This document shows, piece after piece, positions 24,757 through 62,467 of a DNA stretch of 64,000 nucleotides. The notes beneath the pieces were generated by a model that was not told where the DNA came from, did no database searches, and was given only the letters and a program-made list of their open reading frames with translations. Position numbers and translations under genes: made by a program. The stretch is from Akkermansia muciniphila (GTDB lineage Bacteria > Verrucomicrobiota > Verrucomicrobiia > Limisphaerales > BJHT01): assembly GCA_945861535.1 (NCBI GenBank), contig CAMAUZ010000031.1, forward strand, positions 9,761 through 73,760, in the 5' to 3' direction. The first letter of the stretch is position 1. Each line of letters begins with the position of its first letter.

Positions 24757-24803
24757 CGGACCCCGTGGACGCGGATGCGATTCAGGCGGAACGCAGCGCT
24801 TGT

Positions 24804-26997: not shown

Positions 26998-27278
26998 CAA
27001 AACTCCCCTGTCCCACGCCCGTGCGCGCTGCGGGAGTTTTCACACAGTCTGTGAAGGCCGCGCTCCGCCTGCATCGCTACGGCTGATTGCGGTTTGCTTG
27101 AAACTCGGCGGTGCCACGCGCCACCCCCCCCCGGACGCACCAAGGAATGTCCCGCATTGGGCAAGTTTTGGTTGGTACCGATTCGCCGGGGAGTTCAGTT
27201 TCACTACGTGGACGCGGGGCGCGGCAGCGCACGCCACGCTTCCAAATTGCAACGCAACTCAGCCCATAGAAAAAGCCC

Positions 27279-27625: not shown

Positions 27626-27800
27626 CATGAACCCGAACTCCGAAACTCGTCGGGGAGCGCACGCGGCCCGCGTGCCGGTTTGGGCGGCCCGCCCAAACCA
27701 TCGTTCCCCAGTCTGCCTTTCCTCCTGCGGGGAAAAGTTGGTGCGACGAGGTTTTCGGCGGGCCGCCGAAAACTGCACGCCAGCGGCGTGCGCTCCCCGG
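27626..27800 (+). repeat. Family F 175-bp structured repeat, copy 1 (upstream edge of the efflux operon)
   Basis: About 90% identical and co-oriented with 35533-35707. Internal palindromes include cggtttgggcggcccgcccaaaccg, ttttcggcgggccgccgaaaa, and ggggagcgcacgc paired with gcgtgcgctcccc. Confidence 0.9.
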
Positions 27801-30963: not shown

Positions 30964-31483
30964 AATGAAATCGGGAATTTCAGCGATGGATGGAACACCG
31001 ATGAAAAACGGAAGGGACAACGGGAGCGAGTCGCAGCCGGGGCGGGGACAGCGTGTCCCCGCAACCTTAGCCGTCTCTATACAGTGGAAACCGTCAAGAG
31101 GACCACAGAGATACGATGAACACAGAGGAAAACGAGGGCCGGCCTCTGCTCCAAGCAGTCCCCAATCGGTGAACCAATATCCGCCAGTGAATTCTTGGTT
31201 TTCTCCGTACTGCAACTCTTCAGAGTCCTCGCGCGTCGCGAGGATTTTTCCGCTGTGCCGACAGCCACCAGCTCCCCCCCGGAGAATTGCGGCCGCTGCC
31301 TGGCTCCTCGTCCCGGAGGGACACCGCAGGAAATTAGCCGGGGGCAAGCCCGCGCCAGCGGGCGCGGCCCCCGGTTGCCGCATCAAACAAGACATGCCCC
31401 AGCGGGGCATCGGAGAATTTTTTTGGGCCGTCCGTCGCCGTGGGCAGGTCAGGCCGGCGGCGATGGTCCGGCATCCCAGCCCA

Positions 31484-31655
31484 TTTCTTCGATGCCCCGC
31501 TGGGGCACGGAGCCACTCGTCACCGCTTCCGGGGGCGGCGTCCGCTGCGGACTTGCCCCCGGCTAATCTCCTCCGGCGTCCCTCCGGGTCGGCCAACGTG
31601 CGGGCACGCGCTGAAACCGGAAACCGCCGACATGGGAGTGGCGTTCCAAACTTGT
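31484..31655. repeat. Family D repeat, intact copy (paralogous empty site for MITE family C)
   Basis: The sequence tttcttcgatgccccgctggggcacgg...cttgcccccggCTAAtctcctccggcgtccctccggg...ggcgttcc aligns with 44056-44164 plus 44382-44462. An inverted partial copy lies at 31325-31425. Confidence 0.8.
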
Positions 31656-31850
31656 TCGGTTGCGGCTCCGCCGCGCTGTGTTCCTGGTGTCTCGGTGGTC
31701 CATCAGAATCGGCTCGACTGCATCGTTGCGGCTTAGTGGGGACGGGCCGTCCCCACCCCGAGGATGATGGAACTTATTGTGGCGCATCACGGTCCTGTGG
31801 CACTCGCAGGCGGGCCGCCCGCGCTCCTGTCCGACATCCCCTCCTGACCC

Positions 31851-34800
31851 ATGACTAGCGCCCTCATCCGCTGGTGCCTGAGGAACGCGTTCCTCGTGAT
31901 CATTGCGGTCGTGGCGCTCATCGCCGGCGGCTACTACGCGCTCGTCAACACGCCCGTCGATGCCATCCCCGACATCGGCGAGAAGCAGGTGATCGTCTTC
32001 GCCGATTGGCCCGGACGCTCGCCCCAGGATGTCGATGACCAGGTCACCTATCCGCTGACCACGAGCCTCACGGGCACGCCGGGCGTGAAGACCATCCGTT
32101 CCATGTCCGGCTTCGGCTTCGCGATGGTCTTCGTGATCTTCAAGGACAACGTCGATTACTACTGGGCGCGCTCGCGCGTGCTCGAACGTATCAATGTCGC
32201 CCGGCAACGCCTGCCCGTGGGCGTCACGCCCGTGCTCGGTCCTGACGCCACGGCGCTCGGGCAGGTCTATTGGTACACGGTCGAGGGCGAGGGCTTCGAT
32301 CTCGCGGAGCTGCGTTCCATCCAGGACTGGTATGTCCGCTACCAGCTCAACTCCGTCGAGGGCGTCTCCGAAGTCGCCAGCATCGGCGGGCATGTGAAGC
32401 AGTATCAGATCGACGTTCACCCCGACAAAATGCGGGCGCAGCGCGTGACGCTGATGGACATCTACGAGGCCGTCCGCAAATCCAACATCGATGTCGGCGC
32501 CAAGGTGATCGAGAAAAACGGCGTCGAGTTTTTCATCCGCGGCGTCGGCTTCATCAAGTCCGTCGAGGACCTCGAGAAAATCGTCGTCCGCCAGGAGAAG
32601 GGCACGCCCATCCAGATTCGCCACGTCGCCAGCGTGACCATCGGCCCCGACTTCCGCCGCGGCGCGCTCGACAAAGCCGGCGTCGAGGCCGTGGGCGGCG
32701 TGGTGGTGATGCGCTACGGCGAAAACCCGCTCGAAGTCGTCCGCCGTCTCAAGGCGAAAATCCAGCAGCTCGAGCCCGGCCTGCCGCAGAAAACCCTGCG
32801 CGACGGTCGGGTGTCGAAGGTGAAGCTCGTCCCGTTCTATGACCGCACCGACATCGTCAACGAGACCGTCGATACGTTGAAGCAGGCGCTGCTTGAAGAG
32901 GCCATTCTCGCCAGTCTCATCATCATCATTTTCCTGCTCCATCTGCGCAGCACGGTCTCGGTGCTGGTCACCTTTCCCCTCAGCTTCGCGCTCTGTTTTA
33001 TCCTCATGTACGTGTGCGGCGTGGACTCGAACATCATGTCGCTTGCGGGCCTCGCCATCGCGATTGGCGACGTGGGCGACATGGGGATCATCATGACGGA
33101 GAACATCTACCGGCACGTCGCCACCGAGGACAAAACCAAGAGCCATTTCGACAAGATTTACGAGGGCGCGTCCGAGGTCGGCGGCGCGATTGTCACCGCG
33201 GTGTCCAACACGTTGGTGTCGTTCATTCCTGTGTTTTTCCTGACCGACCAAGAGGGCAAGCTCTTCCGCCCGCTGGCATTCACCAAGACCTTCGCCATCG
33301 GCGCGTCGGTGGTGCTGGCGCTCACCGTCGTGCCGTTGACGTGCTACTTCCTGTTCTATCCGCTCAAGTGGACCCGCCGCGGTCTGTGGGGATTGGCGGC
33401 GGTGGTCGGCGGCCTGGGCACGGTCGGCACGCACGTCGTGCTGATGTGGGCGCTCGCGGGCAGCCATTACAGCGGCTGGCCGGTGTCGATTTCCGTCGGG
33501 GTCATCCTCGCGCTCGCCGTTGTGCGCATGGCGCGCGAACGCTTTTTGCCGCTCGAGCAAAACAGGGTTTCGCGCGGCATCGCCTCGGTGTATGCGCCAA
33601 CGCTGCGGTGGGTTCTCGCTCACAAGAAAACCTTCCTCGTCGCGCCGGTGACGATCCTGCTGGCGGGCCTGACGGTCTGGCTCGGGGCCGGGACGATGCT
33701 CGCGCCCCTCGGCGCGGCGATCAATGCGTTCGCCCGCGAGCCGGCCTCACCGGAATTGAAACAGGCGATGTATGCCAAGCCCGACGCCGATCTCACGCGG
33801 CCGCTTGTCGAGTTCGATCAGGTGCGCTGGCAGCACCTGCGCCGCGCCGATGGCTCGCACACGCGGCGTATTCTCTGGCGACGGCAGGATCCGCGCGCGG
33901 CCGCGGCCGAGACGGCGGCGGGCGTCGAGTTGGTGAAGGAACGCCGCATCCTCGCGGGCCTCGGCCGCGAGTTCATGCCGCCGCTGGACGAAGGCTCGTT
34001 CCTTTACATGCCGTCGCTGCTGCCGCAGGCGGGACTCGGCCCTGCGCTCGCCGTGAACAGCCTGCAAGACCGCGCCATCGCGAGCGTTCCCGAGGTCGAG
34101 TCCGTGGTCGGCAAGCTCGGCCGCGCCGAGTCCGCGCTCGATCCCGCGCCCATCGGCATGATGGAAACGATCGTCATCCTCAAGCCTGAGTCCGAGTGGC
34201 GGCTCGTCCCGGTGAAGCGCTGGTTCGCGAACTGGCCTGCCTGGCTCAAGCGCCCGCTAACGTGGCTCTGGCCCGAGGATCGGGTCATCACCAAGAACGA
34301 AATCCTCACCGAGTTGCAGGAAAAGACCGCCATCCCGGGCGTGTTGCCAACGTGGTTGCAACCGATCCAGACGCGCCTGGTCATGTTGCAGACCGGCTTC
34401 CGCGCGATGATGGGCGTGAAGATTTACGGCAGCGATTTGCGCGAGATCGAGCGACTCGGATTGGCCATCGAGCAGCATCTCAAGCATGTGCCCGGCGCGA
34501 CGGACGTCGTCGCCGACCGCATCGTCGGCAAGCCTTACCTTCAGTTCGAGATCGATCGCGACAAGATCGCGCGCTACGGCGTGAAGATTCGCGACGTGCA
34601 GGACGTGATCGAAGTGGCCATCGGCGGCATGAACCTCATGGAGACCGTCGAGGGCCGGGAGCGCTACCCGGTGCGCGTGCGCTACCTGCGCGAGTTCCGC
34701 GAGGACATTCCCGAGCTGGAGAAAATCCTCGTCCCCAGCAGCACCGGCGCGCAAATCCCGCTCGCCCAGGTTGTCAACATCCGCAGCGTCCTCGGCCCGC

Positions 34801-35537
34801 AGGAGATCAAGGGCGAGCGCGGCTTGCTCGTCGGCTACGTCACCATGAACACCCGCGACCGCGACGAAGTGAGCGTGGTCGAGGACGCCGAGGCGGTGCT
34901 GCAAGCGGCCCTGCGCGACGGCCATCTGAAACTGCCGCCGGGCTATTACTGGGAGTGGTCCGGTCAGTTCGAGAACCAGCGCCGCGCCACGGCCCGCATG
35001 AAAATCCTCGTGCCCGTGTGCCTCTTCATCATGTTCGTAATGCTCTACCTCGGCTTCCGGCGCTGGTGGATCGCGCTGATCATTTACTTCGGCGTCATGG
35101 TCTCCGCGTCGGGTGGTTTCCTGATGCTCGCGTGGTGGGGCGCCAATCTCTCGGTCGCGGTCTGGGTCGGTTTCCTCGTGCTCTTCGGCGTGGTGGACGA
35201 CGACGGCGTGGTCATCTCAACCTATCTCGAAAACATCTTCGACCGCGCCACCTTCCACTCGATCGAGGAGATTCGCGCCGCCGTTCTGGAGGCGGGTCTC
35301 AAGCGCATCCGCCCGTGTCTCATGACCATCTCGACCACGATCTTCGGACTGCTCCCGATCTTCTGGTCGCACGGCCGCGGCTCCGACGTGATGCAACCGA
35401 TGGCGATCCCAAGCGTCGGCGGCATGACCGTGAGCCTGATCACGCTCTTCATCGTCCCGTGCCTCTTCTGCGCGGTGGAGGAGTGGAAATGGAAACGGGC
35501 GCAGCGGGCGGCGGACATTCAATCGCCCGCGTCATGA
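31851..35537 (+). CDS. CusA/CzcA-family heavy-metal efflux RND permease
   Basis: 1228 aa. The N-terminus (MTSALIRWCLRNAFLVIIAVVALIAGGYYALVNTPVDAIPDIGEKQVIVFADWPGRSPQDVDDQVTYPL) is canonical for the HME-RND family. Confidence 0.95.
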   Translation: MTSALIRWCLRNAFLVIIAVVALIAGGYYALVNTPVDAIPDIGEKQVIVFADWPGRSPQDVDDQVTYPLTTSLTGTPGVKTIRSMSGFGFAMVFVIFKDNVDYYWARSRVLERINVARQRLPVGVTPVLGPDATALGQVYWYTVEGEGFDLAELRSIQDWYVRYQLNSVEGVSEVASIGGHVKQYQIDVHPDKMRAQRVTLMDIYEAVRKSNIDVGAKVIEKNGVEFFIRGVGFIKSVEDLEKIVVRQEKGTPIQIRHVASVTIGPDFRRGALDKAGVEAVGGVVVMRYGENPLEVVRRLKAKIQQLEPGLPQKTLRDGRVSKVKLVPFYDRTDIVNETVDTLKQALLEEAILASLIIIIFLLHLRSTVSVLVTFPLSFALCFILMYVCGVDSNIMSLAGLAIAIGDVGDMGIIMTENIYRHVATEDKTKSHFDKIYEGASEVGGAIVTAVSNTLVSFIPVFFLTDQEGKLFRPLAFTKTFAIGASVVLALTVVPLTCYFLFYPLKWTRRGLWGLAAVVGGLGTVGTHVVLMWALAGSHYSGWPVSISVGVILALAVVRMARERFLPLEQNRVSRGIASVYAPTLRWVLAHKKTFLVAPVTILLAGLTVWLGAGTMLAPLGAAINAFAREPASPELKQAMYAKPDADLTRPLVEFDQVRWQHLRRADGSHTRRILWRRQDPRAAAAETAAGVELVKERRILAGLGREFMPPLDEGSFLYMPSLLPQAGLGPALAVNSLQDRAIASVPEVESVVGKLGRAESALDPAPIGMMETIVILKPESEWRLVPVKRWFANWPAWLKRPLTWLWPEDRVITKNEILTELQEKTAIPGVLPTWLQPIQTRLVMLQTGFRAMMGVKIYGSDLREIERLGLAIEQHLKHVPGATDVVADRIVGKPYLQFEIDRDKIARYGVKIRDVQDVIEVAIGGMNLMETVEGRERYPVRVRYLREFREDIPELEKILVPSSTGAQIPLAQVVNIRSVLGPQEIKGERGLLVGYVTMNTRDRDEVSVVEDAEAVLQAALRDGHLKLPPGYYWEWSGQFENQRRATARMKILVPVCLFIMFVMLYLGFRRWWIALIIYFGVMVSASGGFLMLAWWGANLSVAVWVGFLVLFGVVDDDGVVISTYLENIFDRATFHSIEEIRAAVLEAGLKRIRPCLMTISTTIFGLLPIFWSHGRGSDVMQPMAIPSVGGMTVSLITLFIVPCLFCAVEEWKWKRAQRAADIQSPAS

Positions 35538-35707
35538 ATTGGATTTCCGAAACCGGACGGGGAGCGCACGCGGCCCGCGTGCCGGTTTGGGCGGCCCGCC
35601 CAAACCGTCGTTCCCCAGTCTGCCTTCTCGGGCGCGGGGGAAAGTTAGTGCGACGAGGTTTTCGGCGGGCCGCCGAAAACGGCACGCCAGCGGCGTGCGC
35701 TCCCCGG
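35533..35707 (+). repeat. Family F 175-bp structured repeat, copy 2 (overlaps the RND permease stop codon)
   Basis: See copy 1. The alignment runs from catgaa... to ...gcgtgcgctccccgg. Confidence 0.9.
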
Positions 35708-35810
35708 GGCGTTGCGCGCGCCAGCAAATCCGCTGGTGCCACCGCCGCCCGGCGCAGTCGCGGCACGTCGGCGGGTGTGATTGAAAGTGGGTGAGGCGGG
35801 CGGAAATTTT

Positions 35811-37440: not shown

Positions 37441-38439
37441 ATGAACAATGTCGCCTTCTACGATACCAAACCCTACGACCGCGTTTACATGGAACGCGCG
37501 GAGCGGAGCAACGAGCTGCGCTGGCAGTTCCATGAGTTCCGGCTGACTCGCGAGACGGCGGGCACCGCCGGCGGCGCGCAGTCCGTCTGTGTCTTCGTCA
37601 ACGACCGGCTCGACCGGCCGTGTCTGGAAGCCCTGCATGCCGGTGGCGTGCGCCACATCGCCCTGCGGTGCGCCGGCTTCAACAACGTGGACCTGGACGC
37701 CGCGCGCGCCGTGGGGCTGGCCGTCACGCGGGTGCCGGCTTATTCGCCCCACGCCGTCGCCGAGCATGCCGTCGGCCTGTTGCTGACCCTCAATCGCAAA
37801 ATCCACCGGGCCTACAACCGGGTGCGGGAACACAACTTTTCCCTGGCGGGCCTGGTGGGATTCGACCTCTGCGGCAAGACGGTGGGCGTGGTGGGCACGG
37901 GCAAAATCGGACGCATCGCCGCGCAGATTTTTCGCGGCTTCGGGACCACGGTGCTGGCGTACGACCCGTTCCCCGCGCCCGAATGGGCCACGGTCCAGCA
38001 GGTGACCTACGTGGATTTTCCCGATGTGCTGGCCCGCAGCGACATCCTCACTCTGCATCTGCCGCTGACACCCGAGACGCACCAACTCTTGAACGAACGC
38101 ACGCTGGCCATGCTCAAGCCCGGCGCGTTTGTCATCAACACCAGCCGCGGGAAACTCATCGACAGCACCGCGCTCATTCAGCATCTCAAAAGCGGCCATC
38201 TCGGCGGGGTCGCGCTCGATGTGTACGAAGAGGAGGAGGGCATCTTCTTCGAGGACCATTCCAGCACTGTGCTGCAAGACGACGAGCTCACCCTGCTGCT
38301 GTCCTTCCCCAATGTCCTCATCACTTCCCATCAGGCGTTCCTCACCCAGGAGGCGTTGGGCGAAATCGCCCGCGTCACGACGGCGAACCTGCTGGCGCTG
38401 GGGCGGGGCGATTTTCTCCCGGGCAGCCGGCTGGCCTGA
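37441..38439 (+). CDS. ldhA: D-lactate dehydrogenase (D-isomer-specific 2-hydroxyacid dehydrogenase), paralogue 1
   Basis: 332 aa. It is collinear with E. coli LdhA as I recall it: ...ALRCAGFNNVDL...VPAYSPHAVAEH...LNRKIHRAYNRVREHNFSL...GTGKIG...NTSRG...GHQAFLT-type motifs. Confidence 0.9.
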   Translation: MNNVAFYDTKPYDRVYMERAERSNELRWQFHEFRLTRETAGTAGGAQSVCVFVNDRLDRPCLEALHAGGVRHIALRCAGFNNVDLDAARAVGLAVTRVPAYSPHAVAEHAVGLLLTLNRKIHRAYNRVREHNFSLAGLVGFDLCGKTVGVVGTGKIGRIAAQIFRGFGTTVLAYDPFPAPEWATVQQVTYVDFPDVLARSDILTLHLPLTPETHQLLNERTLAMLKPGAFVINTSRGKLIDSTALIQHLKSGHLGGVALDVYEEEEGIFFEDHSSTVLQDDELTLLLSFPNVLITSHQAFLTQEALGEIARVTTANLLALGRGDFLPGSRLA

Positions 38440-42375: not shown

Positions 42376-42800
42376 ACCGCCCCGTTCATTGTCTATACCT
42401 CGAACGTCTGCGCCACCCTCGGGCTGCGCTCGATGTTCTTCGCCGTGGCCGGCATCATGAAACGGTTCCACTACCTGCACTACGGGCTGGCGGCGGTGCT
42501 CGTGTTCGTCGGCACTAACCCGTAACCATGCAGTGAGGGCGACCGGAGCGCGGCCTTCAGGCCGCAGAAATGTCCACCCGCAGCGACCGTTCCAAACCAC
42601 TCGAACCCGTACCTCCACGCACCATTGAGTGAGTCAAAAAAGGCGTCTGGAAATTTGCTCGCCCCACACAGTATCCACACTTCTGCGGCCGGAAGGCCGC
42701 GCTCCTGCTGCATCGTCACGGCTAAGATGCTGGTGGCGGACTGCTACAAAATCCCGACGTTGGCTTCGCTGCTCCACGCTCTGCGCGCCAGCCAAAAGAA
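42376..42800 (+). pseudogene. TerC-family membrane protein, C-terminal fragment split by a MITE
   Basis: [45 protein letters not shown] is fused in frame to the carbonic anhydrase remnant and is interrupted at 42519-42721. It continues KMLVADCYKIPTLASLL after the insertion. Removing the element and one CTAA restores ...VFVGTKMLVAD... Confidence 0.75.
42519..42721. mobile_element. MITE family C, copy 1 (203 bp) with perfect CTAA target-site duplication
   Basis: CTAA flanks it at 42515-42518 and 42722-42725. The terminal inverted repeats are cccgtaaccatgcag...ggagcgcggccttcaggccgcagaa and ttctgcggccggaaggccgcgctcc...ctgcatcgtcacgg. Confidence 0.85.
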
Positions 42801-43108: not shown

Positions 43109-43849
43109 ATGAAAATCCTCCATGCCATTCTGCTCCTCACCCTCCTCGCCGGCACCCCCATCCATGCCGCTGACCGGCAGGATCACAACATCCATCTCTG
43201 GCTCAACTACGTCGGCGATCATCCCCTCGGCGCCGGCCCGTGGGGCGTGCATCTCGAAACTCAGATACGCCGCGCCGACTTCGGCCGGAACTGGCAACAA
43301 TTCCTGCTCCGCCCCGGCGTCAACTACGCCTTCAGCCCCGCCCTGAACGCCACGCTTGGCTACGCGTTTGTCGATACCTACCGGTACGGCGATTATCCCG
43401 CCCTCGACACCTTTCCTGAGCACCGGGTCTGGGAGCAACTCTCCTACACGCACAAAGCCTTCGACTTGGAATGGCAGCATCGCTTCCGGCTCGAGCAACG
43501 CCACCTCGGCGAACTGGGCGCCAACGGCAGCGGCGGTTTCAACGTGGTGAACTTCCGCTACGAAAACCGCTTCCGCTACCAACTGCGCACCACGGTCCCG
43601 CTGGCCGCGGACCAGAAGACCTATCTCGCCTTGTGGAATGAACTGTTCTTCAACTTTGGTCGCAACGTGTCCGGCAACGACTTCGATCAAAACCGCGCCT
43701 TCATCGGCCTCGGGCGCAAGCTCACCGACACCACCCGGCTGGAAGTGGGCTTCTTGGAGCAAACGCTGCAACGCCGCGGCGGGACGATCTGGGAAAACAA
43801 TCACACCGTCGCCGTGTGGCTCACCTCCAAGCTGCCGTTCGGAAAGTAG
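43109..43849 (+). CDS. DUF2490 domain-containing outer-membrane beta-barrel-like protein
   Basis: 246 aa with a signal peptide (MKILHAILLLTLLAGTPIHA). The sequence WLNYVGDHPL...LRPGVNYAF...LGYAFV...EHRVWEQL...RFRLEQR matches my recollection of DUF2490. Confidence 0.8.
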   Translation: MKILHAILLLTLLAGTPIHAADRQDHNIHLWLNYVGDHPLGAGPWGVHLETQIRRADFGRNWQQFLLRPGVNYAFSPALNATLGYAFVDTYRYGDYPALDTFPEHRVWEQLSYTHKAFDLEWQHRFRLEQRHLGELGANGSGGFNVVNFRYENRFRYQLRTTVPLAADQKTYLALWNELFFNFGRNVSGNDFDQNRAFIGLGRKLTDTTRLEVGFLEQTLQRRGGTIWENNHTVAVWLTSKLPFGK

Positions 43850-44055
43850 GCGTACGGACGTCCGCAACTCGATGCCCCGGTCATCCGCCGGAACAGCCGG
43901 TGACCGCAGTTCCTGGCCACGCCACTGGTCATCCGATCCCTGAAGCCCCAACCATTCGTCGCGCCGAATCAACGGGACCGGCCGACCCCGGGGCGTCGCC
44001 CGTCCCGCAGCAGCACCGTCACCACTCGTCGCCTCGGGCCGATCGGGCCGCCAGC

Positions 44056-44465
44056 GACCAGCCAACCTCCCGGGCCGTTTCTTCGATGCCCCGCCTGGGG
44101 AACGGAGCCATTGGGCACGGGTTCCGGGGGCGGCGTCCGCTGGCGCGGGCTTGCCCCCGGCTAACCCGTGACTATTCAGTGAGGGCAACAGGAGCGCGGC
44201 CTTCAGGCCGCAGAAACGTGCGTCGTGTCTGGGGTGAGCGAATTTTCAGACAATCTCTTCCGCATCACCAAATAGTGAGTGGCGGTACGCGTTCGGGTGG
44301 TTTGGAACGGTCCGTGCCAAGGGACGCTTCTGCGGCCTGAAGGCCGCGCTCCCATCGCGCTGACTGCATGGACACGGCGAAGCTCCTCTGGCGTCCCTCC
44401 GGGACCGGAACCAGGGGGCCACGCACTGACCAAGTGAAACCACCGGCACCGGAATGGCGTTCCTT
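44056..44465. repeat. Family D repeat, copy interrupted by MITE C2 (filled site)
   Basis: Segments 44056-44164 and 44382-44462 align with the two halves of 31484-31655. The break falls exactly at the CTAA of cttgcccccggCTAA. Confidence 0.8.
44165..44377. mobile_element. MITE family C, copy 2 (213 bp)
   Basis: The left flank is CTAA (44161-44164) and the right flank is CGAA (44378-44381), one mismatch. The ends are cccgtgactattcagtgagggcaacaggagcgcggccttcaggccgcagaa and ttctgcggcctgaaggccgcgctcc...ctgcatggacacgg. Confidence 0.8.
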
Positions 44466-44481
44466 ATCAGTTTTTGCGGAA

Positions 44482-44694
44482 GTTCGTGCCGTCCGCACCG
44501 GGGCCTCCGTATCCCTCGCCTCCGTTCGGAACGGGGCAGAGGGGAGGGGAGAGGAGGCGCTCCGCAAGGTTGGGCCGCTCGCCATGGTGAAGCCCCCCTT
44601 TCCCCAGCCCTCGCCCCGTTCGTGTCTCACGGGGCGAGGGAGACGGACGCGCTGCTGGTTACAGCAGTCCCGGCGGGAACGTTCGCAACGATTG
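44482..44694. repeat. Family E repeat copy 1 (about 213 bp; ...ccgttcgtgYctcacggggcgagggagacggacgcg...)
   Basis: It aligns along its whole length with 62468-62680. It contains the internal hairpins ctccgttcggaacgg and gagggga/tcccc-type arms. It generates spurious peptides of the type HERGEGRGEG. Confidence 0.85.
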
Positions 44695-44842
44695 CCAGTC
44701 ATTTGGTTGCGGCGCCGCGGCTCGGTGTTCATCGTGTATCGGCGGTGCATTGGCATCGGCTCGACTGCCGCGTTGCGGCTGAGTCGTCCCGGGCCGGTGG
44801 CAGCATCACCCAGCGCATGAAAACGGTTTCGTCGGCAAATTT

Positions 44843-47569
44843 ATGAAGACCCTGACCGACAAAGTCTGGCACCACATGCCGGCCGAAGCGGTCGTGCAGT
44901 TCCTCGGCGTGAATCTGGCCACCGGCCTGTCGGCGGATGAAGTTGGCAGGCGCCAGCAAGAATTCGGGCCGAACCGCGTCACCGCGCGGCGGGGCAAACC
45001 GGCGTGGGTCAAGTTTCTCCAGCAGTTCAACCAGCCGCTCGTTTACATCCTGCTCCTGGCGGTCGGCGTGACGGCTTTCCTCGGCGAATGGGTGGATTCA
45101 GCCGTCATCTTCGGCGTCGTGTTCGTCAACGCCATCGTCGGTTTCCTTCAGGAGGCCAAGGCCGAGAAGGCCATCGCGGCGCTAGCTAAAATGGTCGCCA
45201 CCGAAACCACCGTACGCCGCGACAGTCGCAAACTCCGCGTCCACTCCGAGGAACTCGTCCCGGGCGATGTGGTGCTCCTCCAATCCGGCGACCGCGTGCC
45301 CGCCGACCTGCGGCTGTTCCACGTTCGCAATCTGCAGGTGGATGAATCCGCCCTCACCGGCGAGTCGCTCCCCGTGTCCAAGCATCCCGACCCGCTGGCG
45401 CACGATACGATTCTCGCGGAACGGAAAAATCTCGCCTACGCGGGCACGCTCATCAGCAGCGGGCAGGCCGAAGCCGTCGTGTGGGGCATTGGCGATAAGA
45501 CGGAGACGGGCCGCATCGGCCAGCTCATTTCCAGCGCGGTCGAGTTGTCCACGCCGCTGACGAAGAAAATCGCGCAGTTCAGCCAACTGGCGCTCTGGAT
45601 CATTCTCGCGCTGGCCGCCGCGACGTTTGCCGTGGGCGTCGCGCGCGGCGAAAAGCCGGCGGCCATGTTCCTGGCCGCGGTGGCGCTGGCGGTCGGCGCG
45701 ATTCCCGAGGGCCTGCCCGCCGCCGTCACCATCGTGCTCGCCATCGGGGTGTCCCGGATGGCGAAGCGGCAGGCCATCATCCGCAAGCTGCCCGCGGTCG
45801 AGACGCTCGGCAGCACGACGGTGATTTGCTCGGACAAGACCGGCACGCTCACCGAGAACCAGATGACCGTGCAGGAGATTCTCGCGGGCGGAAAACTCTA
45901 CGAGGTCACCGGCGCGGGCTACGAACCCAAGGGTGAGATCCGCCATGGGGGAGCGGCCGTCCATGCACCGGAACATCCCGCGCTCGCCGAGTGCCTGCGC
46001 GCCGGGGTGCTGTGCAACGATTCGCAACTCGTGCGCGAAGCCGGCCGGCTCAAGGTGCAGGGCGACCCCACCGAGGCCGCGCTGCTGGTCGCCGCCGGGA
46101 AGGGCGGGCTGATTCACGCGGACACGCATCGCGATTCGCCGCGCGTGGACACCATTCCCTTCGAGTCCGAGCACATGTTCCGCGCCACGCTGCACGAGGC
46201 GCACCCCGCTCGCGTCATCTACAAAGTCGGCGCTCTCGAACGCCTGCTCGAACGCTGCACCGACGCGCTCGGCGAGCGCAACACCCTGGTCCCGCTCGAC
46301 AAGGTCGCCGTGCATCGCGCCGCCGAGACGATGGCCGGGCGCGGACTGCGCGTGCTGGCCCTGGCCCGCCGCCATGTGGCCGGGCACCACGCCAAACTCG
46401 AGCACGCCCACGTCTCCGGAGGTCTCACCTTCCTCGGGCTGCAGGCGATGATGGACCCGCCGCGACCTGAGGCTATCGCGTCCGTGCGCGAGTGCCAGCG
46501 CGCCGGCATCGCCGTGAAGATGATTACCGGCGACCACCTTGTCACCGCCCGCGCCGTCGCCGGTCTGATTGGGTTGAAGGGGCGCGAGGAACACGGGCAA
46601 CTGGTCGCCCTCTCCGGCCGCGAACTGGAGAAAATTTCCGACGAAGAACTGCCCGCAGTCGCCGAACGCACCGCCGTCTTCGCCCGCGTCGCCCCCGAAC
46701 AAAAGCTCCGGCTCGTCAAGGCGCTGCAAGCACGCGGCCACGTCGTCGCCATGACCGGCGACGGCGTGAACGACGCCCCCGCCCTCAAGCAGGCGGACAT
46801 CGGCGTGGCGATGGGCATCACCGGGACGGACGTGGCCAAGGGCGCCGCCGCGATGATTCTCACCGACGACAACTTTGCCTCCATCGGGGCCGCCGTGGAG
46901 GAAGGTCGCGGCGTGTTCGACAACCTGACCAAGTTCATCGTCTGGACGCTGCCAACCAACGTGGGTGGGGCCATGGTGCTGCTCACGGCCATCCTGTTCG
47001 GCACCGTGCTGCCCGCGTTGCCGGTGCAATTGCTCTGGGTCAACATGATGACGGCCCTCCTGCTGGGCCTGATGCTGGTGTTTGAGCCGAAGGAGCCGGA
47101 TCTCATGGGCCGTCCGCCGCGCGATCCGCGGCGCCCGTTGCTGACCTTTCCGCTGCTGATGCGCACCGGGTTGGTCTCGCTCATCATCCTGGCCGGGGCG
47201 TTCTGGGTGTTCTTTTGGGAATTGCGGGCGGCAGGCGCGACCGAGTCCGCCGCGCGCACCGCCGTCACCAATGTCATAGTGGCGGTCGAAATCGCCTACC
47301 TCTTCAGTTGCCGTTCCCTTCACCACTCCGTCTTCGCCATCGGGCTGTTCACCAACCGCTGGGCCGTCGCCGGCTCGCTGGCGATGCTCGGGGCGCAACT
47401 CCTCTTCACCTACGCGCCGGTGATGCACCAACTTTTCCACACCGCCCCGATTGACGCCGCGTCCTGGCTGCGCATCGCCGGCGTGGCCGGCGCGGCCTTG
47501 GTGGCGGTGGAACTGGAAAAGTGGTTGCGCTTCGGCGGGCGTCGCAGCCGGCCCGCGTTGCCAGAATGA
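44843..47569 (+). CDS. Cation-translocating P-type ATPase (P2/SERCA-like), paralogue 1
   Basis: 908 aa. It has TGESLPV, PEGLPAAVTI, the phosphorylation motif CSDKTGTLTENQMTV and the hinge MTGDGVNDAPALKQADIGVAMG. Confidence 0.95.
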   Translation: MKTLTDKVWHHMPAEAVVQFLGVNLATGLSADEVGRRQQEFGPNRVTARRGKPAWVKFLQQFNQPLVYILLLAVGVTAFLGEWVDSAVIFGVVFVNAIVGFLQEAKAEKAIAALAKMVATETTVRRDSRKLRVHSEELVPGDVVLLQSGDRVPADLRLFHVRNLQVDESALTGESLPVSKHPDPLAHDTILAERKNLAYAGTLISSGQAEAVVWGIGDKTETGRIGQLISSAVELSTPLTKKIAQFSQLALWIILALAAATFAVGVARGEKPAAMFLAAVALAVGAIPEGLPAAVTIVLAIGVSRMAKRQAIIRKLPAVETLGSTTVICSDKTGTLTENQMTVQEILAGGKLYEVTGAGYEPKGEIRHGGAAVHAPEHPALAECLRAGVLCNDSQLVREAGRLKVQGDPTEAALLVAAGKGGLIHADTHRDSPRVDTIPFESEHMFRATLHEAHPARVIYKVGALERLLERCTDALGERNTLVPLDKVAVHRAAETMAGRGLRVLALARRHVAGHHAKLEHAHVSGGLTFLGLQAMMDPPRPEAIASVRECQRAGIAVKMITGDHLVTARAVAGLIGLKGREEHGQLVALSGRELEKISDEELPAVAERTAVFARVAPEQKLRLVKALQARGHVVAMTGDGVNDAPALKQADIGVAMGITGTDVAKGAAAMILTDDNFASIGAAVEEGRGVFDNLTKFIVWTLPTNVGGAMVLLTAILFGTVLPALPVQLLWVNMMTALLLGLMLVFEPKEPDLMGRPPRDPRRPLLTFPLLMRTGLVSLIILAGAFWVFFWELRAAGATESAARTAVTNVIVAVEIAYLFSCRSLHHSVFAIGLFTNRWAVAGSLAMLGAQLLFTYAPVMHQLFHTAPIDAASWLRIAGVAGAALVAVELEKWLRFGGRRSRPALPE

Positions 47570-47582
47570 CCAACGATTTACC

Positions 47583-48581
47583 ATGACCACCATCGCCTTC
47601 TACGACACCAAAGTTTACGACCGGCAATACTTCGAGCGCGCCGCCGACGCCGGGCGCTTGCGCTGGCGGTTTCATGACTTCCGCCTCACCAGCGAGACCG
47701 CCGCCAGCGTGGCCGGCGCGCAGGCCGTCTGCGTGTTTGTCAACGACCGGCTCGACGCTTTGTGTTTGCAGCAACTGCACCAGGCCGGCGTGCGGCTCGT
47801 GGCGCTGCGCTGCGCGGGCTTCAACAACGTGGACCTCACCGCCGCGCAGGCGCTCGGCCTGACCGTCACGCGCGTGCCCGCCTACTCCCCGCACGCCGTC
47901 GCTGAACACACCGTCGGGCTGCTGCTCACGCTCAACCGCAAGATTCACCGCGCCTACAATCGCGTCCGCGAACACAATTTTTCCTTGAGCGGCCTGGTCG
48001 GCTTCGATCTCTACGGCAAGACCGTCGGCGTCGTGGGCACCGGGAAAATTGGCCGCGTCGCCGCGCAGATTTTTCGCGGCTTCAACACCACGGTGCTCGC
48101 CTACGACCCCGCGCCCGCGCCGGACTGGGCGGGGCAGCACGGCATCCGCTACACCGACCTCGACGCGCTGCTGGCTGCCAGTGATGTCGTGTCCCTGCAC
48201 CTGCCGCTCACGCCGCAATCCCGTTACCTGCTCAACGCGGAAACCTTCGGGCGGATGAAACCCGGCGCGTACCTCATCAACACCAGCCGCGGCAAACTGG
48301 TGGACACCACCGCGCTCATCGCGGCGCTCAAGTGCGGCCGGCTCGGCGGCGTCGCGCTCGATGTTTACGAGGAGGAGGAAGGGCTTTTCTTCGAGGACCA
48401 CTCCGGCGAAGTGCTGCAAGACGACGAACTGTCGCGGTTGCTGACGTTTCCCAACGTGCTCATCACCGCGCACCAGGCCTTTCTCACGCGCGAGGCGCTG
48501 ACCGAGATCGCGCGCGTGACGACGGAAAACCTGTTGCGCGCGGCCACCGGAGACTTTCTGACCGGCACCCGCCTGGCCTGA
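47583..48581 (+). CDS. ldhA: D-lactate dehydrogenase, paralogue 2
   Basis: Track ORF 47451..48581. I chose Met45 (nt 47583), giving MTTIAFYDTKVYDRQYFERA.... It is 332 aa, the same length as the 37441 copy, and by eye roughly three-quarters identical to it. It starts 13 nt after the ATPase stop. Confidence 0.9.
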   Translation: MTTIAFYDTKVYDRQYFERAADAGRLRWRFHDFRLTSETAASVAGAQAVCVFVNDRLDALCLQQLHQAGVRLVALRCAGFNNVDLTAAQALGLTVTRVPAYSPHAVAEHTVGLLLTLNRKIHRAYNRVREHNFSLSGLVGFDLYGKTVGVVGTGKIGRVAAQIFRGFNTTVLAYDPAPAPDWAGQHGIRYTDLDALLAASDVVSLHLPLTPQSRYLLNAETFGRMKPGAYLINTSRGKLVDTTALIAALKCGRLGGVALDVYEEEEGLFFEDHSGEVLQDDELSRLLTFPNVLITAHQAFLTREALTEIARVTTENLLRAATGDFLTGTRLA

Positions 48582-51221: not shown

Positions 51222-52429
51222 ACATTCTCGCCGTCAACAGTGGCAGCACCTCGCTCAAGCTCGATTTGATGCAGGTCGAATCGTCCGGCGCCGCGCCGCG
51301 CCGCCTGGTGCGTGGCCGGGTGGAACGCTTCGGGCCGGAGGCGGCGACGGACTTCCAACTCGGTGACGGCGAGCGTTTCCGCAGCTCGAAAAACGTAGCC
51401 GACCATCGAGCGGGCGTGAGTTGGTTCCTCGACAACCTGGCCGCCGCCTCCGGGGGTACGCTGCTGCCCATCGCGGCGGCGGTTCATCGCGTCGTGCATG
51501 GCGGCGCGCGTTTCACCGCGCCGGCGCTGCTGGACGAAGGAGTGCTCGCCGAGTTGGAAGCACTGAGCGAACTGGCCCCGCTGCACAATCCGCCCGCGTT
51601 GACCGCCATCCGCGCCGTGCAGTCCGCGCTCGGAGCGGACGTGCCGATGGTGGCCGTTTTCGACACCGCCTTTCACCGCGCCCTGCCACCGCGCGCCGCA
51701 AACTATCCCTTGCCGCACGAACTCACCGCGCGCCACGGCCTGCGCCGCTTCGGGTTTCACGGCATCGCCCACGACTGCATGCTCCGCCGCTACGCGCAAC
51801 TGGCCGGGGTGCCCATCGAGGAGGCGGTGCTCATCACGTTGCAACTCGGGGGAGGATGTTCCGCGGCGGCGATTCGTGGCGGGCATTCCGTGGACACTTC
51901 GATGGGTTTCACGCCGCTCGAAGGTTTGATGATGGGCACGCGCACGGGCGACCTCGACCCCGGTCTGCTGCTTTATCTCGCGCGCAAAGAGGGCCTGGGC
52001 GTCGCCGATTTGGAGAACCTGCTGAACCAACGTTCTGGTCTGCTCGGCGTTTCCGGCCGGTCAGCGGACCTGCGCGAGGTGTTGGCCGCTGCACCCCATG
52101 ATGCGCGAGCCGCACTCGCCGTGGACATGTTTTGCTACCGGGCGCGGAAGTATATCGGCGCCTATCTCGCCGCGCTCGGTGGCGCGCAAGCCGTCGTGTT
52201 CGGCGGCGGCGTCGGCGAAAATCAGCCGCTCATCCGGCTGCGGATCTGTGAAGGCTTGGACTGGTTCGGACTGGTGCTCGACCCGGCGCGCAATGCGGCG
52301 GCCGCGGGTGTCGAAGGTCGGATCAGTCGTGACGATGCCCGCGTTCAGGCGTGGGTCGTGTCCGTGGATGAAGCCGCGCTCATGGCGGAAGGCGCCGCCG
52401 AATGTCTGCGCGGTAACCATGCAGTCTGA
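51218..52429 (+). CDS. ackA: Acetate kinase
   Basis: 403 aa. The sequences are MNILAVNSGSTSLKLDL...HRVVHGG...FDTAFH...GFHGIAH. An ATGA overlap joins it to xfp. Confidence 0.95.
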   Translation: MNILAVNSGSTSLKLDLMQVESSGAAPRRLVRGRVERFGPEAATDFQLGDGERFRSSKNVADHRAGVSWFLDNLAAASGGTLLPIAAAVHRVVHGGARFTAPALLDEGVLAELEALSELAPLHNPPALTAIRAVQSALGADVPMVAVFDTAFHRALPPRAANYPLPHELTARHGLRRFGFHGIAHDCMLRRYAQLAGVPIEEAVLITLQLGGGCSAAAIRGGHSVDTSMGFTPLEGLMMGTRTGDLDPGLLLYLARKEGLGVADLENLLNQRSGLLGVSGRSADLREVLAAAPHDARAALAVDMFCYRARKYIGAYLAALGGAQAVVFGGGVGENQPLIRLRICEGLDWFGLVLDPARNAAAAGVEGRISRDDARVQAWVVSVDEAALMAEGAAECLRGNHAV

Positions 52430-52672
52430 GCGCGGCGCGTGGGCGTCTCGCCCGCTCAGCGCGGTCAAACCACGGGTGGGAGCACTTTTCCCGACGCGCA
52501 CAAAGGGCACCGAACGGTGAGCCGAAAGCGGCGATTGCGGCCAGCGTTTCCGGCCCGATCCCGCGGTGAGCGGGCGCGACGCCCGCGGTCCAATCACTGC
52601 ATGGTTACGGCTAGGGTTTGACCCCATTGGGATCGCGGGCCTTCCGGTTATCCTCGCTCCAACTGAAATGAC

Positions 52673-53016: not shown

Positions 53017-55965
53017 ATGCCCCAACTCGATCCTCCTCCCAAAAATCCTCCGGCAAAAAAACCGGCGGGCGACGATGTCGCGAAGCGGGCCTACGCCATC
53101 TATGAGAAGGAAGGCCGGCCGCAAGGCCGTGACGTGCAGAATTGGTTGGAAGCCGAAGCCACCGCGCCGCTCGCCGCTGCTGCGCCGTCCGCCGCCACTG
53201 CGCCGCCCGCCGCCACTGCGCCGCCCGCGGGCGAGGCCGCGCCGACCACGGCCACCGAGCAGGCGTGGCATCACTTACCGGCCGATGAATTCGTGAAACT
53301 TCTCGGCGTAGCTCTGTCCGCCGGCTTGTCGGCGGATGAAGTTGCGCGTCGCCAGAAAGAGTCCGGCCCGAACCGCGTCACCGCGCGGCGGGGCACGCCG
53401 GCGTGGAAGAAATTTCTCCAGCAGTTCAACCAGCCGCTCGTTTACATCCTGCTTGTCGCGGTCGCGGTCACGGCAGCCCTCGGCGAGTGGGTGGATGCGT
53501 CGGTCATCTTCGGCATCGTGCTGTTCAATGCCGTCGCCGGCTTCCTCCAGGAATCCAAGGCCGAGACCGCCATCGCGGCGCTCGCCAAGATGGTCGTCAC
53601 CGAGGCGACGGTGCGTCGCGATGGGAAAAAGCTGCGCGCCCCTTCCGAGTCGCTCGTCCCTGGCGATGTCGTGTTGCTGCAATCCGGCGACCGCGTGCCC
53701 GCCGACCTGCGGCTCCTCGACATCCGCAATTTGCAGGTGGACGAATCCGCGCTCACCGGCGAGTCGCTCCCCGTGGCGAAGCAGCCCGACGCGCTGCCGC
53801 CGGAGACCGTCCTCGCCGACCGCAAGAACCTCGCCTTCGCCGGCACCTTCGTCACCAGCGGCCAGGCCGAGGGCGTCGTGTGCGCCATCGGCAACCAGAC
53901 CGAGACCGGCCGCATCGCCGGGCTAATCGCGGGCGCGGTCGAGTTGTCCACGCCGCTCACGAAACAAATCGCGCAGTTCAGCAAGCTTGTGCTCTGGATC
54001 ATTCTGGGACTGGCGGCGGCGACCTTCGCGCTCGGCGTCGCGCGCGGCGAGAAACCGGCCGAGATGTTCATGGCCGCCGTGGCGCTCGCGGTCGGCGCGA
54101 TTCCCGAGGGACTGCCCGCCGCCGTCACCATCGTGCTCGCCATCGGCGTGTCCCGCATGGCGAAGCGGCAGGCCATCATCCGCAAGCTGCCCGCCGTCGA
54201 GACACTCGGCAGCACCACCGTCATCTGCTCGGACAAAACCGGCACGCTCACCGAGAACCAGATGACGGTGCGGGAAATTTTCGCGGGCGGAAAACGCTAC
54301 GAACTCACCGGCGCGGGCTACGAACCGAAGGGCGAACTCCAGCTCGAGGGCGCGGTCGTGAAGTTGCCCGAGCATCCCGCACTCGCCGAGTGCCTGCGGG
54401 CCGGCGTGCTCTGCAACGATTCAAAACTCGGACAGGAGGACGGGCGGCCCAAGGTGCAGGGGGATCCCACCGAGGCCGCGTTGATCGTCGCCGCCGAAAA
54501 GGGCGGGCTGAAACACGACGACCTCGTTCGCGAAGCGCCGCGCGTGGACATGATCCCCTTCGAGTCCGAGCACATGTTCCGCGCCACGCTGCACGAGGCG
54601 GGCGAGGGCCGCGTCATCTATCAGGTCGGCGCGCTCGAAGCGCTGCTCGACCGCTGCACCGACGCTCTTGGCGACAACAACGCGGTCGGCGAACTCGACA
54701 AGGACGCCGTGCATCGCGCCGCCGAGACGATGGCCACGCGCGGCCTCCGCGTGCTGGCCCTCACGCGTCGGCAAGTGGACAAACAGCACGCCAAGCTCGA
54801 GCACGCCCACGTCGCCGAGGCGCTCACGTTTCTCGGCTTGCAAGGCATGATCGATCCGCCGCGCGCCGCCGCCATTGCTGCCATCGGCCAGTTCGCCCGC
54901 GCTGGCATCACCGTGAAAATGATCACGGGCGACCACCTCGTGACCGCCCGCGCCATCGCCGAGCAGATTGGACTGAAGGGCAAAGACGAGCACACGCCGC
55001 TCGTCGCGCTCGCCGGCGGTGAACTGGAGAAAGTTTCCGACGCCGATCTGCCCGACGTGGCCGAGCGCACCGCCGTCTTCGCCCGCGTCGCGCCCGAGCA
55101 GAAACTTCGCCTCGTGCAGGCGCTTCAGTCGCGCGGCCACGTCGTCGCCATGACCGGCGACGGCGTGAACGACGCCCCCGCGCTCAAGCAGGCCGACATC
55201 GGGGTGGCGATGGGCATCAGCGGCACGGACGTGGCGAAAGGCGCGGCCGCGATGATTCTCACCGACGACAACTTCGCCAGCATCGAGGCCGCCGTGGAGG
55301 AAGGCCGCGGCGTGTTCGACAACCTCACCAAGTTCATCGTCTGGATCATCCCGACCAACCTCGGCGAGTCGTTGATGCTGCTGACCGCCATCGTGCTCGG
55401 CCTGCCGCTGCCGTTGCTGCCGCTGCAACTCCTCTGGATCAATCTCACCGACACGCTGCTCGGGCTTTCCCTGGCGTTCGAGCCGAAGGAGGGCGACGTG
55501 ATGAGCCGCCCGCCACGCCCGCCGAAGCAGTCCTTGCTACCGCTGCCGCTCATCCGGCGTGCCGGACTCGTGTCGTTCATCATGGTGGCCGGCGGGTTGG
55601 GCCTGTTCTGGTGGGAAATGCGCGTGGCGCAGACCGGGGAGGCCGTGGCCCGCACGGTGGCCGTGAACGTCATCGTGCTGATCCAGCTCTTTTACCTCTT
55701 CAATTGCCGCTCGCTGCAGCGCACGGCCTTCGCCATCGGGCTGTTCACCAACCGCTGGGTCATTGCCGGTTCGCTGGGCATGGTGGGCGCGCAACTTCTC
55801 TTCACCTACGTGCCGGTGATGAACCGGCTCTTCCACAGCGCGCCGATCTCGGGTTGGGCGTGGCTGCGCATCCTGGGCGTCGCGGCGGTGGTGTATGTCG
55901 CCGTCGAAGTTGAAAAATGGCTTCGCTTCCGGCGGGGTCGCGCCAGCGCCGGCGTGCCCGCGTGA
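53017..55965 (+). CDS. Cation-translocating P-type ATPase (P2/SERCA-like), paralogue 2, with N-terminal DUF2934-like extension
   Basis: Track ORF 52744..55965. I chose Met92 (nt 53017). The N-terminus (DVAKRAYAIYEKEGRPQGRDVQNWLEAEA) matches the DUF2934 pattern. An Ala/Pro linker follows, containing an 18-bp x2 repeat (about 53190-53226). The remainder is an ATPase core collinear with paralogue 1 (CSDKTGTLTENQMTV, MTGDGVNDAPALKQADIGVAMG). Confidence 0.92.
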   Translation: MPQLDPPPKNPPAKKPAGDDVAKRAYAIYEKEGRPQGRDVQNWLEAEATAPLAAAAPSAATAPPAATAPPAGEAAPTTATEQAWHHLPADEFVKLLGVALSAGLSADEVARRQKESGPNRVTARRGTPAWKKFLQQFNQPLVYILLVAVAVTAALGEWVDASVIFGIVLFNAVAGFLQESKAETAIAALAKMVVTEATVRRDGKKLRAPSESLVPGDVVLLQSGDRVPADLRLLDIRNLQVDESALTGESLPVAKQPDALPPETVLADRKNLAFAGTFVTSGQAEGVVCAIGNQTETGRIAGLIAGAVELSTPLTKQIAQFSKLVLWIILGLAAATFALGVARGEKPAEMFMAAVALAVGAIPEGLPAAVTIVLAIGVSRMAKRQAIIRKLPAVETLGSTTVICSDKTGTLTENQMTVREIFAGGKRYELTGAGYEPKGELQLEGAVVKLPEHPALAECLRAGVLCNDSKLGQEDGRPKVQGDPTEAALIVAAEKGGLKHDDLVREAPRVDMIPFESEHMFRATLHEAGEGRVIYQVGALEALLDRCTDALGDNNAVGELDKDAVHRAAETMATRGLRVLALTRRQVDKQHAKLEHAHVAEALTFLGLQGMIDPPRAAAIAAIGQFARAGITVKMITGDHLVTARAIAEQIGLKGKDEHTPLVALAGGELEKVSDADLPDVAERTAVFARVAPEQKLRLVQALQSRGHVVAMTGDGVNDAPALKQADIGVAMGISGTDVAKGAAAMILTDDNFASIEAAVEEGRGVFDNLTKFIVWIIPTNLGESLMLLTAIVLGLPLPLLPLQLLWINLTDTLLGLSLAFEPKEGDVMSRPPRPPKQSLLPLPLIRRAGLVSFIMVAGGLGLFWWEMRVAQTGEAVARTVAVNVIVLIQLFYLFNCRSLQRTAFAIGLFTNRWVIAGSLGMVGAQLLFTYVPVMNRLFHSAPISGWAWLRILGVAAVVYVAVEVEKWLRFRRGRASAGVPA

Positions 55966-56112
55966 CCGGAGCCGCACGGAAGTTCGACGGCGACCAGTCG
56001 CCTGCGCAAAAGCGGTGACGAGGCACCGCACTCCAAAATTGCGCGCCTGCGGCAACCGGCGACCAAGATATGCGCTCGCGCCACGGCGGGGTTTTGGAAT
56101 AGAAGAATCGCC

Positions 56113-62131: not shown

Positions 62132-62247
62132 AAAAGCTCCAAGCTCAAAGTTCAAAGCTCAAGGGAAGCACCATATTTCAAGGGCCAAGGACCGGAGCTG
62201 GGAGAAAAATTGAGCGCAGAAAACGGGGAGGCTTCAGTCTTCGCTAA

Positions 62248-62461
62248 ACCGTAACTATGCAGTCGGCGCGGCAGGAGCGCGGCCTTCAGGCCGCAGAAGC
62301 ACCCGCCCGCCGCGACGGCTCGAAACTTTCCGAACGCGCACCTCAACTCACCATTTGGTGAATCAAAAAAAGCAGTCGTGAAAATTCGATCACCCCATGC
62401 AAGCCGCACGTTTCTGCGGCCTGAAGGCCGCGCTCCGGTTGTCCTCGCTGCATGGGTACGG
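62248..62461. mobile_element. MITE family C, copy 3 (214 bp) with perfect CTAA target-site duplication
   Basis: CTAA flanks it at 62244-62247 and 62462-62465. The ends are accgtaactatgcagtcgg...ggagcgcggccttcaggccgcagaa and ttctgcggcctgaaggccgcgctcc...ctgcatgggtacgg. Confidence 0.85.
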
Positions 62462-62467
62462 CTAAAG

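Follow-up and report, generated by a model that had tools for sequence, protein, structure and literature searches.

A pile of nested miniature elements and its uninterrupted counterpart in a 64-kb window of an uncultured Verrucomicrobiota genome

At 44 kb in the window (the whole stretch of 64,000 nucleotides that was analysed), the gap of 993 bp in front of a P-type cation ATPase gene is a pile of nested mobile repeats, and a locus at 31.5 kb carries part of the same material without two of the insertions. The history that we consider very probable is one of nested MITEs: an old segment of a MITE called M, with the structured inverted doublet D inside it, existed in two places, and two further elements, C2 and E1, then hit the 44-kb copy. 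The nesting itself can be read directly. D lies inside M at both loci; at 44 kb alone, C2 sits in D and E1 in M; and in a third place, at 62 kb, C3 sits in E2. An earlier note on this DNA had suggested that families C and E transposed after the shared segment existed twice. This is supported, since both families have terminal inverted repeats (TIRs) and flank duplications of their own and have copies in unrelated contexts. The data are drawn entirely from MAGs and metagenome contigs. The window itself lies on contig CANEZI010000015.1 of the MAG GCA_947444175.1, and it has repeats in common with MAGs that carry the labels Limisphaerales, Pedosphaera or Verrucomicrobiota.

The 31.5-kb locus is an 887-bp gap. 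On one side of it is a CusB-like gene (ORF 29239-30963), in which a heavy-metal-binding motif is repeated four times, and on the other the gene of an RND pump (31851-35537, ACR_tran). The locus at 44 kb lies between a DUF2490 gene (43109-43849) and the ATPase gene (44843-47569). The genes around the two loci are unrelated, and a gene-scale duplication is thereby ruled out. Within the CusB-like gene (29365-30546) a 69-nt coding repeat with the motif C-x-MHP...CP-x-C occurs four times and makes up a tandem array of heavy-metal-binding domains.

A BLASTN comparison of the window with itself gave three collinear blocks between the two loci (Table 1). C2 with one 5-mer (44166-44382) and E1 with one dinucleotide (44467-44697) were excised in silico, and the emptied 44027-44796 (322 nt) was aligned globally with 31433-31749 (317 nt). 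Of the 313 ungapped columns, 252 (80.5%) are identical, and the C2 and E1 junctions are both free of gaps; the 31.5-kb copy is uninterrupted at both insertion points. The earlier note had proposed that 31484-31740 is homologous end to end with 44056-44795, a claim which would fall if a pairwise alignment found the flanks too weak or too patchy. The alignment has now been made, and the three blocks, the identity after excision and the gap-free junctions confirm the homology. The limits had to be changed, in that the collinear homology starts about 50 nt earlier, at 31433 and 44027 instead of 31484 and 44056.

Since the source is a MAG, it has to be considered that repeats were collapsed or mis-joined in the assembly, and one metagenome contig used below (L100) did prove to be an artefact of this sort, a palindrome. 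An independent assembly from ENA (L002) agrees with the window over 9165 bp with one mismatch. This stretch includes the whole 44-kb intergenic region, and the arrangement at 44 kb is thus not an assembly artefact of the MAG. Several other contigs carry the same neighbourhood, and we give an assembly artefact practically no weight.

Table 1. Coordinates in the window of the elements, their flanks and the homologous blocks at the two loci
Feature	Position	Strand	Remarks
Block 1	31433-31566 vs 44027-44164		79.7% identity, E=1e-28; self-BLASTN
Block 2	31560-31647 vs 44375-44463		74%, E=4e-9; self-BLASTN
Block 3	31655-31749 vs 44702-44796		79%, E=9e-18; self-BLASTN
CTTAG, left flank repeat of M	31066-31070	+	same 5-mer on the other side
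M, 661-bp MITE (377 bp without D)	31071-31731	+	termini CCGTCTCTATACAGT...ACTGCATCGTTGCGG, C-type; search for terminal-repeat pairs
Left arm of M	31071-31130	+	similar to reverse-complemented L of either locus (alignment)
D inverted doublet in M, 284-bp near-palindrome	31308-31591	.	self-inverted BLAST 31309-31591
D left arm	31308-31417	-	nhmmer, profile built from 21 arms; E=1.5e-20 and 2.9e-17 for the arms
D right arm	31485-31590	+	nhmmer with the 21-arm profile
S, internal segment of M	31592-31654	+	contains the empty E site
L, right arm of M	31655-31731	+	79% vs 44702-44796; C-type terminus ACTGCATCGTTGCGG at its end
CTTAG, right flank repeat of M	31732-31736	+	identical to the left one
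C1, family C	42520-42721	+	flanks CTAAC (left) and CTAAG (right)
D central spacer paralogue and 5' part of solo D right arm	44027-44165	+	ends in CTAAC, 44161-44165
C2, family C MITE, 212 bp	44166-44377	-	copy alignment, termini and flanks; nhmmer E=5.5e-70
3' part of D right arm	44383-44407	+	terminal hairpin GTCCCTCCGGGAC
S paralogue	44408-44466	+	ends in TA, 44465-44466
TA, left target duplication of E1	44465-44466	+	flank comparison, junction alignment
E1, family E MITE, 229 bp	44467-44695	+	termini TCAGTTTTTGCGGAAGTTCGTG...CGAACGTTCGCAACGATTGC; 7-copy alignment, flanks
CA, decayed right TA copy of E1	44696-44697	+	flanks, junction alignment
L paralogue	44698-44778	+	ends in ACTGCCGCGTTGCGG, then CTGAG (44779-44783)
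E2, interrupted by C3	62234-62680	+	85% identical to E1; between convergent genes
C3, family C, nested in E2	62249-62461	+	CTAAA on both sides (62244-62248, 62462-62466)

Family C has three copies in the window, and C2 is in the opposite orientation to C1 and C3. The termini, CCGTRAC...GTYACGG (CCGTAAC..GTTACGG), are inverted repeats, and the insertion sites read CTNAN. Relatives in another MAG (CAZUUP01), one of them full-length (L079) and one right-truncated (L081), were aligned with the three window copies. The left terminus CCGTAACNATGCAGT is found in all aligned copies and its inverse at the right end of all except the truncated L081; the hairpin core GGAGCGCGGCCTTCAGGCCGCAGAA is present in both arms. 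L079 is flanked by CTTAG on the left and CTTAG on the right, and C and M in general have C-TNA-N on either side. The target CTNAG being palindrome-like, duplications of 3 bp (TNA) and of 5 bp fit C and M equally well.

The precise insertion of C2 at a CTAA, claimed from the first reading of this DNA, is confirmed: it lies exactly after the CTAA(C) of cttgcccccggCTAA. The left flank is CTAAC and the right flank a decayed CGAAG (44378-44382). The empty counterpart is the CTAAT at 31563-31567 on the plus strand. All 20 D arms outside the 44-kb locus, which come from two genomes and nine metagenome contigs, read through ...CCCCCGGCTAAT/G.TCC... and have the same CTAAT, contiguous at CCCCCGGCTAAT and without insert. 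The empty site of C2 is therefore robust, as it can be seen in 20 further uninterrupted arms.

C3 in E2 makes a second filled and empty pair. Here E2 reads TCTTCG-CTAAA[C3]CTAAA-GATCG, to be compared with the uninterrupted ...TTGCGAAAGTTCG... elsewhere; the site is uninterrupted in the six other E copies, which have CGAAA or CGGAA in this position. It should be noted that the C copies are 77-79% identical to each other. This is about the divergence found between the two M paralogues, and C can therefore not be dated by divergence alone.

Parts of C also occur outside the family. The 22-nt hairpin core GAGCGCGGCCTTCAGGCCGCAG is found at 42538-42562, 44184-44208 and 62267-62291 and in the inverse arm of each C copy, and further in at least 95 stretches (L003-L097) from many Limisphaerales, Pedosphaera and Verrucomicrobiota MAGs. 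In most of the matches among those listed the similarity is limited to about 35-45 nt and does not extend over the whole of C, and the core looks like a widespread REP-like module which has been reused by several repeat families. Variants of the core, GGAGCGCGGC-loop-GCCGC, lie at 26478, 38511 and 38778, and a solo C-type terminus at 27068-27082. A 200-bp element at 52411-52610, upstream of the second P-type ATPase gene of the window, has the C-type termini CGGTAACCATGCAGT...ACTGCATGGTTACGG, the flanks CTGCG and CTAGG, and a different interior.

For family E, a DNA scan of JGI metagenomes with the core CACGGGGCGAGGGAGACGGACG gave no match. External copies were found by translating the frame that is open in both E1 and E2 and searching it against predicted proteins; 12 domain-less ORFs matched, and five contigs (L118-L122) were used. 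There are then seven full copies in unrelated contexts, two in the window and five elsewhere. No Pfam domain was found in the ORFs called over E copies, and the domain-less "hypothetical proteins" in the public gene calls (P0121-P0132, e.g. LBMAG56_40380) are translated E copies. Spurious ORFs over repeats can in this way be used to retrieve copies when DNA scans fail.

The seven copies give the family termini as TCAGTC...GACTGA, those of E1 being TCAGT...ATTGA. Four of the five external copies (L119, L120, L121 and L122) are flanked by TA on both sides, and the fifth (L118) has TA plus one extra T. The left end of E2 could be extended to 62234 by comparison with the sequence left of C3; its flanks, CT and CC, do not fit TA and are presumably decayed. 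E is roughly palindromic over its full length, with two internal GC-rich hairpins, and E1 and E2 each match their own reverse. The earlier note put E1 at about 44474-44694, between the D and L parts, and found neither its boundaries nor its target duplication clean. The insertion is real, with the limits now at 44467-44695 and inside M, and the doubt about the ends has been removed by the five further copies. A genome-wide analysis of the E termini had also been suggested; ends and the TA target are now defined from the seven copies.

When E1 and one dinucleotide are removed, the 26 nt across the junction can be compared with 31640-31665: 20 of 26 are identical, without any indel, in line with the 80% identity overall. 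The empty E site is at 31649-31650, which corresponds to the TA left of E1. It rests on one comparator, the 31.5-kb locus, because a search of 82.7 kb of the contig and of about 0.9 Mb of related loci found no third copy of M. Neither the flanks of E2 nor those of an E-like copy in the genome stretch L051 resemble S or L, which indicates that E is independent of M. In L051 an E-like end follows 55 nt after a D doublet, as it follows after 59 nt at 44 kb; a conserved D-S-E unit was rejected, as the spacer is unlike S and its score equals the mean of shuffles. A dispersed repeat of AAGCTCAAAG units is found at 6655-6701, 6826-6870, 23424-23472 and 62133-62179, one of these copies lying directly upstream of E2.

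The polarity of the two comparisons might be reversed: an ancestor which held both C2 and E1 could have lost them in the 31.5-kb copy, either through exact excision or because the short flank repeats recombined in a deletion. A comparison of two loci cannot formally separate insertion with target-site duplication from deletion between direct repeats, and for the E site there is the single M paralogue. Against this, two independent precise losses would be needed in one copy, none of the 20 other D arms has an insert at CTAAT, and C and E, each having termini and flank repeats of its own, are found in many contexts that are unrelated to one another. We find the reversed order very unlikely and continue with C2 and E1 as insertions.

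The segment shared by the two loci is part of M. Over the first approximately 60 nt its arms (about 58 nt each) align in register with a score of 32, compared with 13.8±2.4 for shuffled sequences, a value reached by 0 of 2000 shuffles (z about 7.6). The left arm is likewise similar to the L of the 44-kb locus. S at 31 kb and S at 44 kb align with a score of 34, compared with 13.1±2.4 after shuffling. The "D-L composite" of the earlier note, with family D followed by an adjoining family L, has therefore been abandoned: L is the right arm of M, and D is nested within M. What stands at 44 kb is confined to the right approximately 320 nt of M with D, from the central spacer of D (44027) onward, and neither a degenerate D left arm nor an M left arm was detected upstream of 44027. 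We thus have one full and one partial copy of M. No further S or L was found in the 82.7 kb of the contig or in the approximately 0.9 Mb of related loci, and the 18.7-kb contig extension holds no additional copy of C, D, E or M.

Both copies of S-L are on the same strand and just upstream of transporter genes, that of the RND pump (start at 31851) and that of the P-type ATPase (44843). They could for this reason be taken not for remains of a transposon but for a leader which regulates two cation-transporter operons in cis (promoter, riboswitch or 5' UTR), which selection has conserved and in which insertions are tolerated. This is at variance with the end of L, which is a C-type terminus followed by a CTTAG that matches the far left end of M, and with the unequal distances to the start codon, about 115 and 60 nt. 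Furthermore, no Rfam family was found at threshold, no sigma-70-like promoter was found, and S-L is found neither in front of the closest homologues of the ATPase gene nor at any other locus searched. The Rfam search at the gathering score covered the 64-kb window without a match, and at E<=10 only chance-level hits were obtained in 30950-31860. When the two gaps were searched for promoters and terminators, the first hairpin of D with its T-rich run was alone in exceeding shuffled sequences. A regulatory leader is in our opinion highly improbable, and S-L is treated here as part of M.

The closest ATPase homologues that were found (86-89% amino-acid identity) have the gene 17 bp after ackA or overlapping the upstream gene, and no repeats upstream of it. 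Because they lack such repeats, it appears that the gap of 1 kb at the 44-kb locus consists for the most part of mobile DNA that has accumulated there. We considered the homologous loci as true empty sites and rejected them for this use, since synteny is rearranged and they hold no repeats; they serve as context only. In related MAGs the genes for ATPase, dehydrogenase, phosphoketolase and acetate kinase are arranged differently. The window itself holds two paralogous gene pairs with DNA identity of about 77-80%, the P-type cation ATPase genes 44843-47569 and 53017-55965 and the 2-hydroxyacid dehydrogenase genes 37441-38439 and 47583-48581.

Some other repeats of the window were noted. An element of 185 bp, palindromic internally, occurs in two direct copies (88%), at 27626-27810 and 35533-35717, one on each side of the RND efflux operon with its three genes (27.6-35.5 kb). 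The copy at 27626 overlaps with the place where the first ORF is listed to begin, and that at 35533 with the end of the pump gene at its stop codon. They may be MITEs, terminators or the ends of a mobilisable unit. A conserved block of about 62 nt occurs three times at a spacing of exactly 481 bp in a stretch of lower GC content (3794-4817, 53.6%). An inverted repeat pair of 104 nt (24800-24903 and 55935-56038), 88% complementary, is separated by 31 kb.

How the right part of M came to be present twice is the step for which two routes have to be weighed. M with D might have transposed to the CTGAG site at 44 kb and then lost its left half, or the segment might have arrived by partial segmental copying of about 335 bp (template switch, illegitimate recombination or gene conversion). 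The copying route has in its favour that the 44-kb homology begins within the central spacer of D, where there is no end of an element, and that the 13-18 nt past the right terminus of M seem similar at the two loci (12 of 18 identical). It should be noted that 4 of these 12 matches are the CTNAG target consensus and that the remaining 9 of 13 are weak evidence; moreover, MITEs are commonly truncated by later deletion. We consider segmental copying quite possible, though less likely than not.

We infer the order of events, the families of the transposases and the way in which the composite reached two places. The same D/S junction is found at both loci, which indicates that D entered M before the segment was doubled. 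The first step would then be the insertion of D into the older M (661 bp with D), and the second the appearance of the right approximately 320 nt of M with D at both loci, by either of the two routes. In a third step C2 (212 bp) would have entered the CTAAT of the D arm and duplicated TAA or the 5-mer, and E1 (229 bp) would have entered a TA inside M and duplicated this TA. E1 and E2 are 85% identical and the M paralogues about 80%; E1 and E2 being the less diverged, a later spread of E fits. As C, E and M have no coding capacity they would have been moved in trans, and C and E would be non-autonomous elements mobilised by transposases encoded elsewhere. No transposase gene was found between C- or E-type termini 0.7-3 kb apart in about 0.9 Mb of loci, and no candidate DDE/DDD transposase for E within the window.

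Family D is of a different kind. Its arms were collected by a metagenome scan with GCGGRCTTGCCCCCGGCTAA and from genome loci, giving L051 and L083 from genomes and nine JGI contigs. They are nearly always arranged as [-][+] doublets, and the 10 doublets have spacers of 14-67 nt. No flank duplication was found around the doublets. An arm is about 105 nt long with three helices, and 95.8% of the cells are paired (RNAalifold and pair counting). Double-sided changes number 27, compared with 7.0±2.3 in shuffled alignments, and 0 of 500 shuffles reach this number; slid controls are at most 61% paired. In the terminal hairpin, compensatory changes are seen in 5 of 6 pairs. A strand asymmetry of G-U versus A-C in the hairpins did not discriminate between RNA and DNA structure. 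CCGGGGG...CCCCCGGCTAAT is invariant in D arms from Verrucomicrobiota genomes and from soil and freshwater metagenomes.

D thus behaves like a large REPIN-like element. One may go further and propose that the arm is not simply left over from a transposon. It would be either a REPIN-like unit of large size that is moved by an enzyme of its own, or a structured module that has been domesticated (bidirectional terminator or small RNA), and the CTAAT in its loop region would be a preferred landing pad for C-type elements; this proposal we regard as rather doubtful. The first hairpin is often followed by a T-rich run (e.g. GCCGCCCCATCCGGGGCGG GATTTGTTTT), at 31394-31410 and in L103, L104, L107, L099 and L101, and judged from this pattern a doublet could act as a two-way intrinsic terminator. 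In the JGI contig L100 two D arms stand 2.6 kb apart and were considered as an autonomous element. The contig (1-4509) is a near-perfect palindrome over its full length, and it was put aside as an assembly artefact and counted as one arm.

No new mechanism is implied by these findings, which belong to ordinary transposon biology. The window alone proves the movement of at least two miniature transposon families in an uncultured Verrucomicrobiota lineage, and a relative order is gained: M, D into M, the copy, then C2 and E1, and separately C3 into E2. An intergenic region upstream of a transporter gene appears to have grown from almost nothing to about 1 kb. The consensus ends and targets should aid the annotation of repeat-rich MAGs, in which the proteins that gene callers place over the repeats are spurious.

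That bacteria have MITEs is well established (PMC2229807, PMC3733652), and C, E and M have the features by which they are recognised: TIRs, target duplications, lengths of 212, 229 and 377 bp, and no coding capacity. The duplications are CTAAA/CTAAA for C3, CTTAG/CTTAG for L079 and M, and TA/TA for E, with one decayed copy each at C2 and E1. Elements of the IS630 family insert almost exclusively into TA, which is duplicated (PMC2170065), and RUP of Streptococcus pneumoniae is an IS630-related MITE (PMC3733652). With its short TIRs, its length of about 230 bp, its lack of coding sequence and its TA/TA flanks, E is like the IS630/Tc1-mariner MITEs (RUP; the ISY100/IS630 mechanism), and from the signature of the TA duplication we infer that its integration would be cut-and-paste of the IS630/Tc1-mariner type. 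E is unlike these MITEs in being palindromic throughout with two GC-rich hairpins; no cognate transposase gene with TCAGTC termini was found, and the sequence matches nothing described.

The target of PIF is extended to CTTAG, and to our knowledge the termini CCGTAAC...ATGCAGT resemble no known IS5 terminus. C and M are like the IS5/PIF-Harbinger group and Tourist-like MITEs in having C-TNA-G/N flanks on both sides. PIF/Harbinger elements make a 3-bp target duplication (PMC2213677). In the comparison of C and M with IS5/PIF-Harbinger (TNA/TWA), the 3-bp TNA and the 5-bp CTNAN are not separable here, and no transposase was found.

REP dimers and RAYTs have been described (PMC3733652). D resembles REP doublets and REPINs in its head-to-head inverted doublets, its compensated hairpins and the lack of a target duplication. 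It differs in size and structure, with about 105 nt and three hairpins, from REPs of 20-40 nt with a single stem-loop and a GTAG or CGTC tag (PMC3733652).

Nested MITEs and related empty sites are a standard means in plant genomics of proving that MITEs move (PMC2213677, PMC3695323), and we reason in the same way, taking as the empty site a paralogue of the host repeat that lacks the insert. What is new is three undescribed families with resolved ends and targets in an uncultured Verrucomicrobiota, and in addition the structured doublet family D with covariation. Unlike the plant cases, this nest was found in a bacterial MAG, and it is three levels deep.
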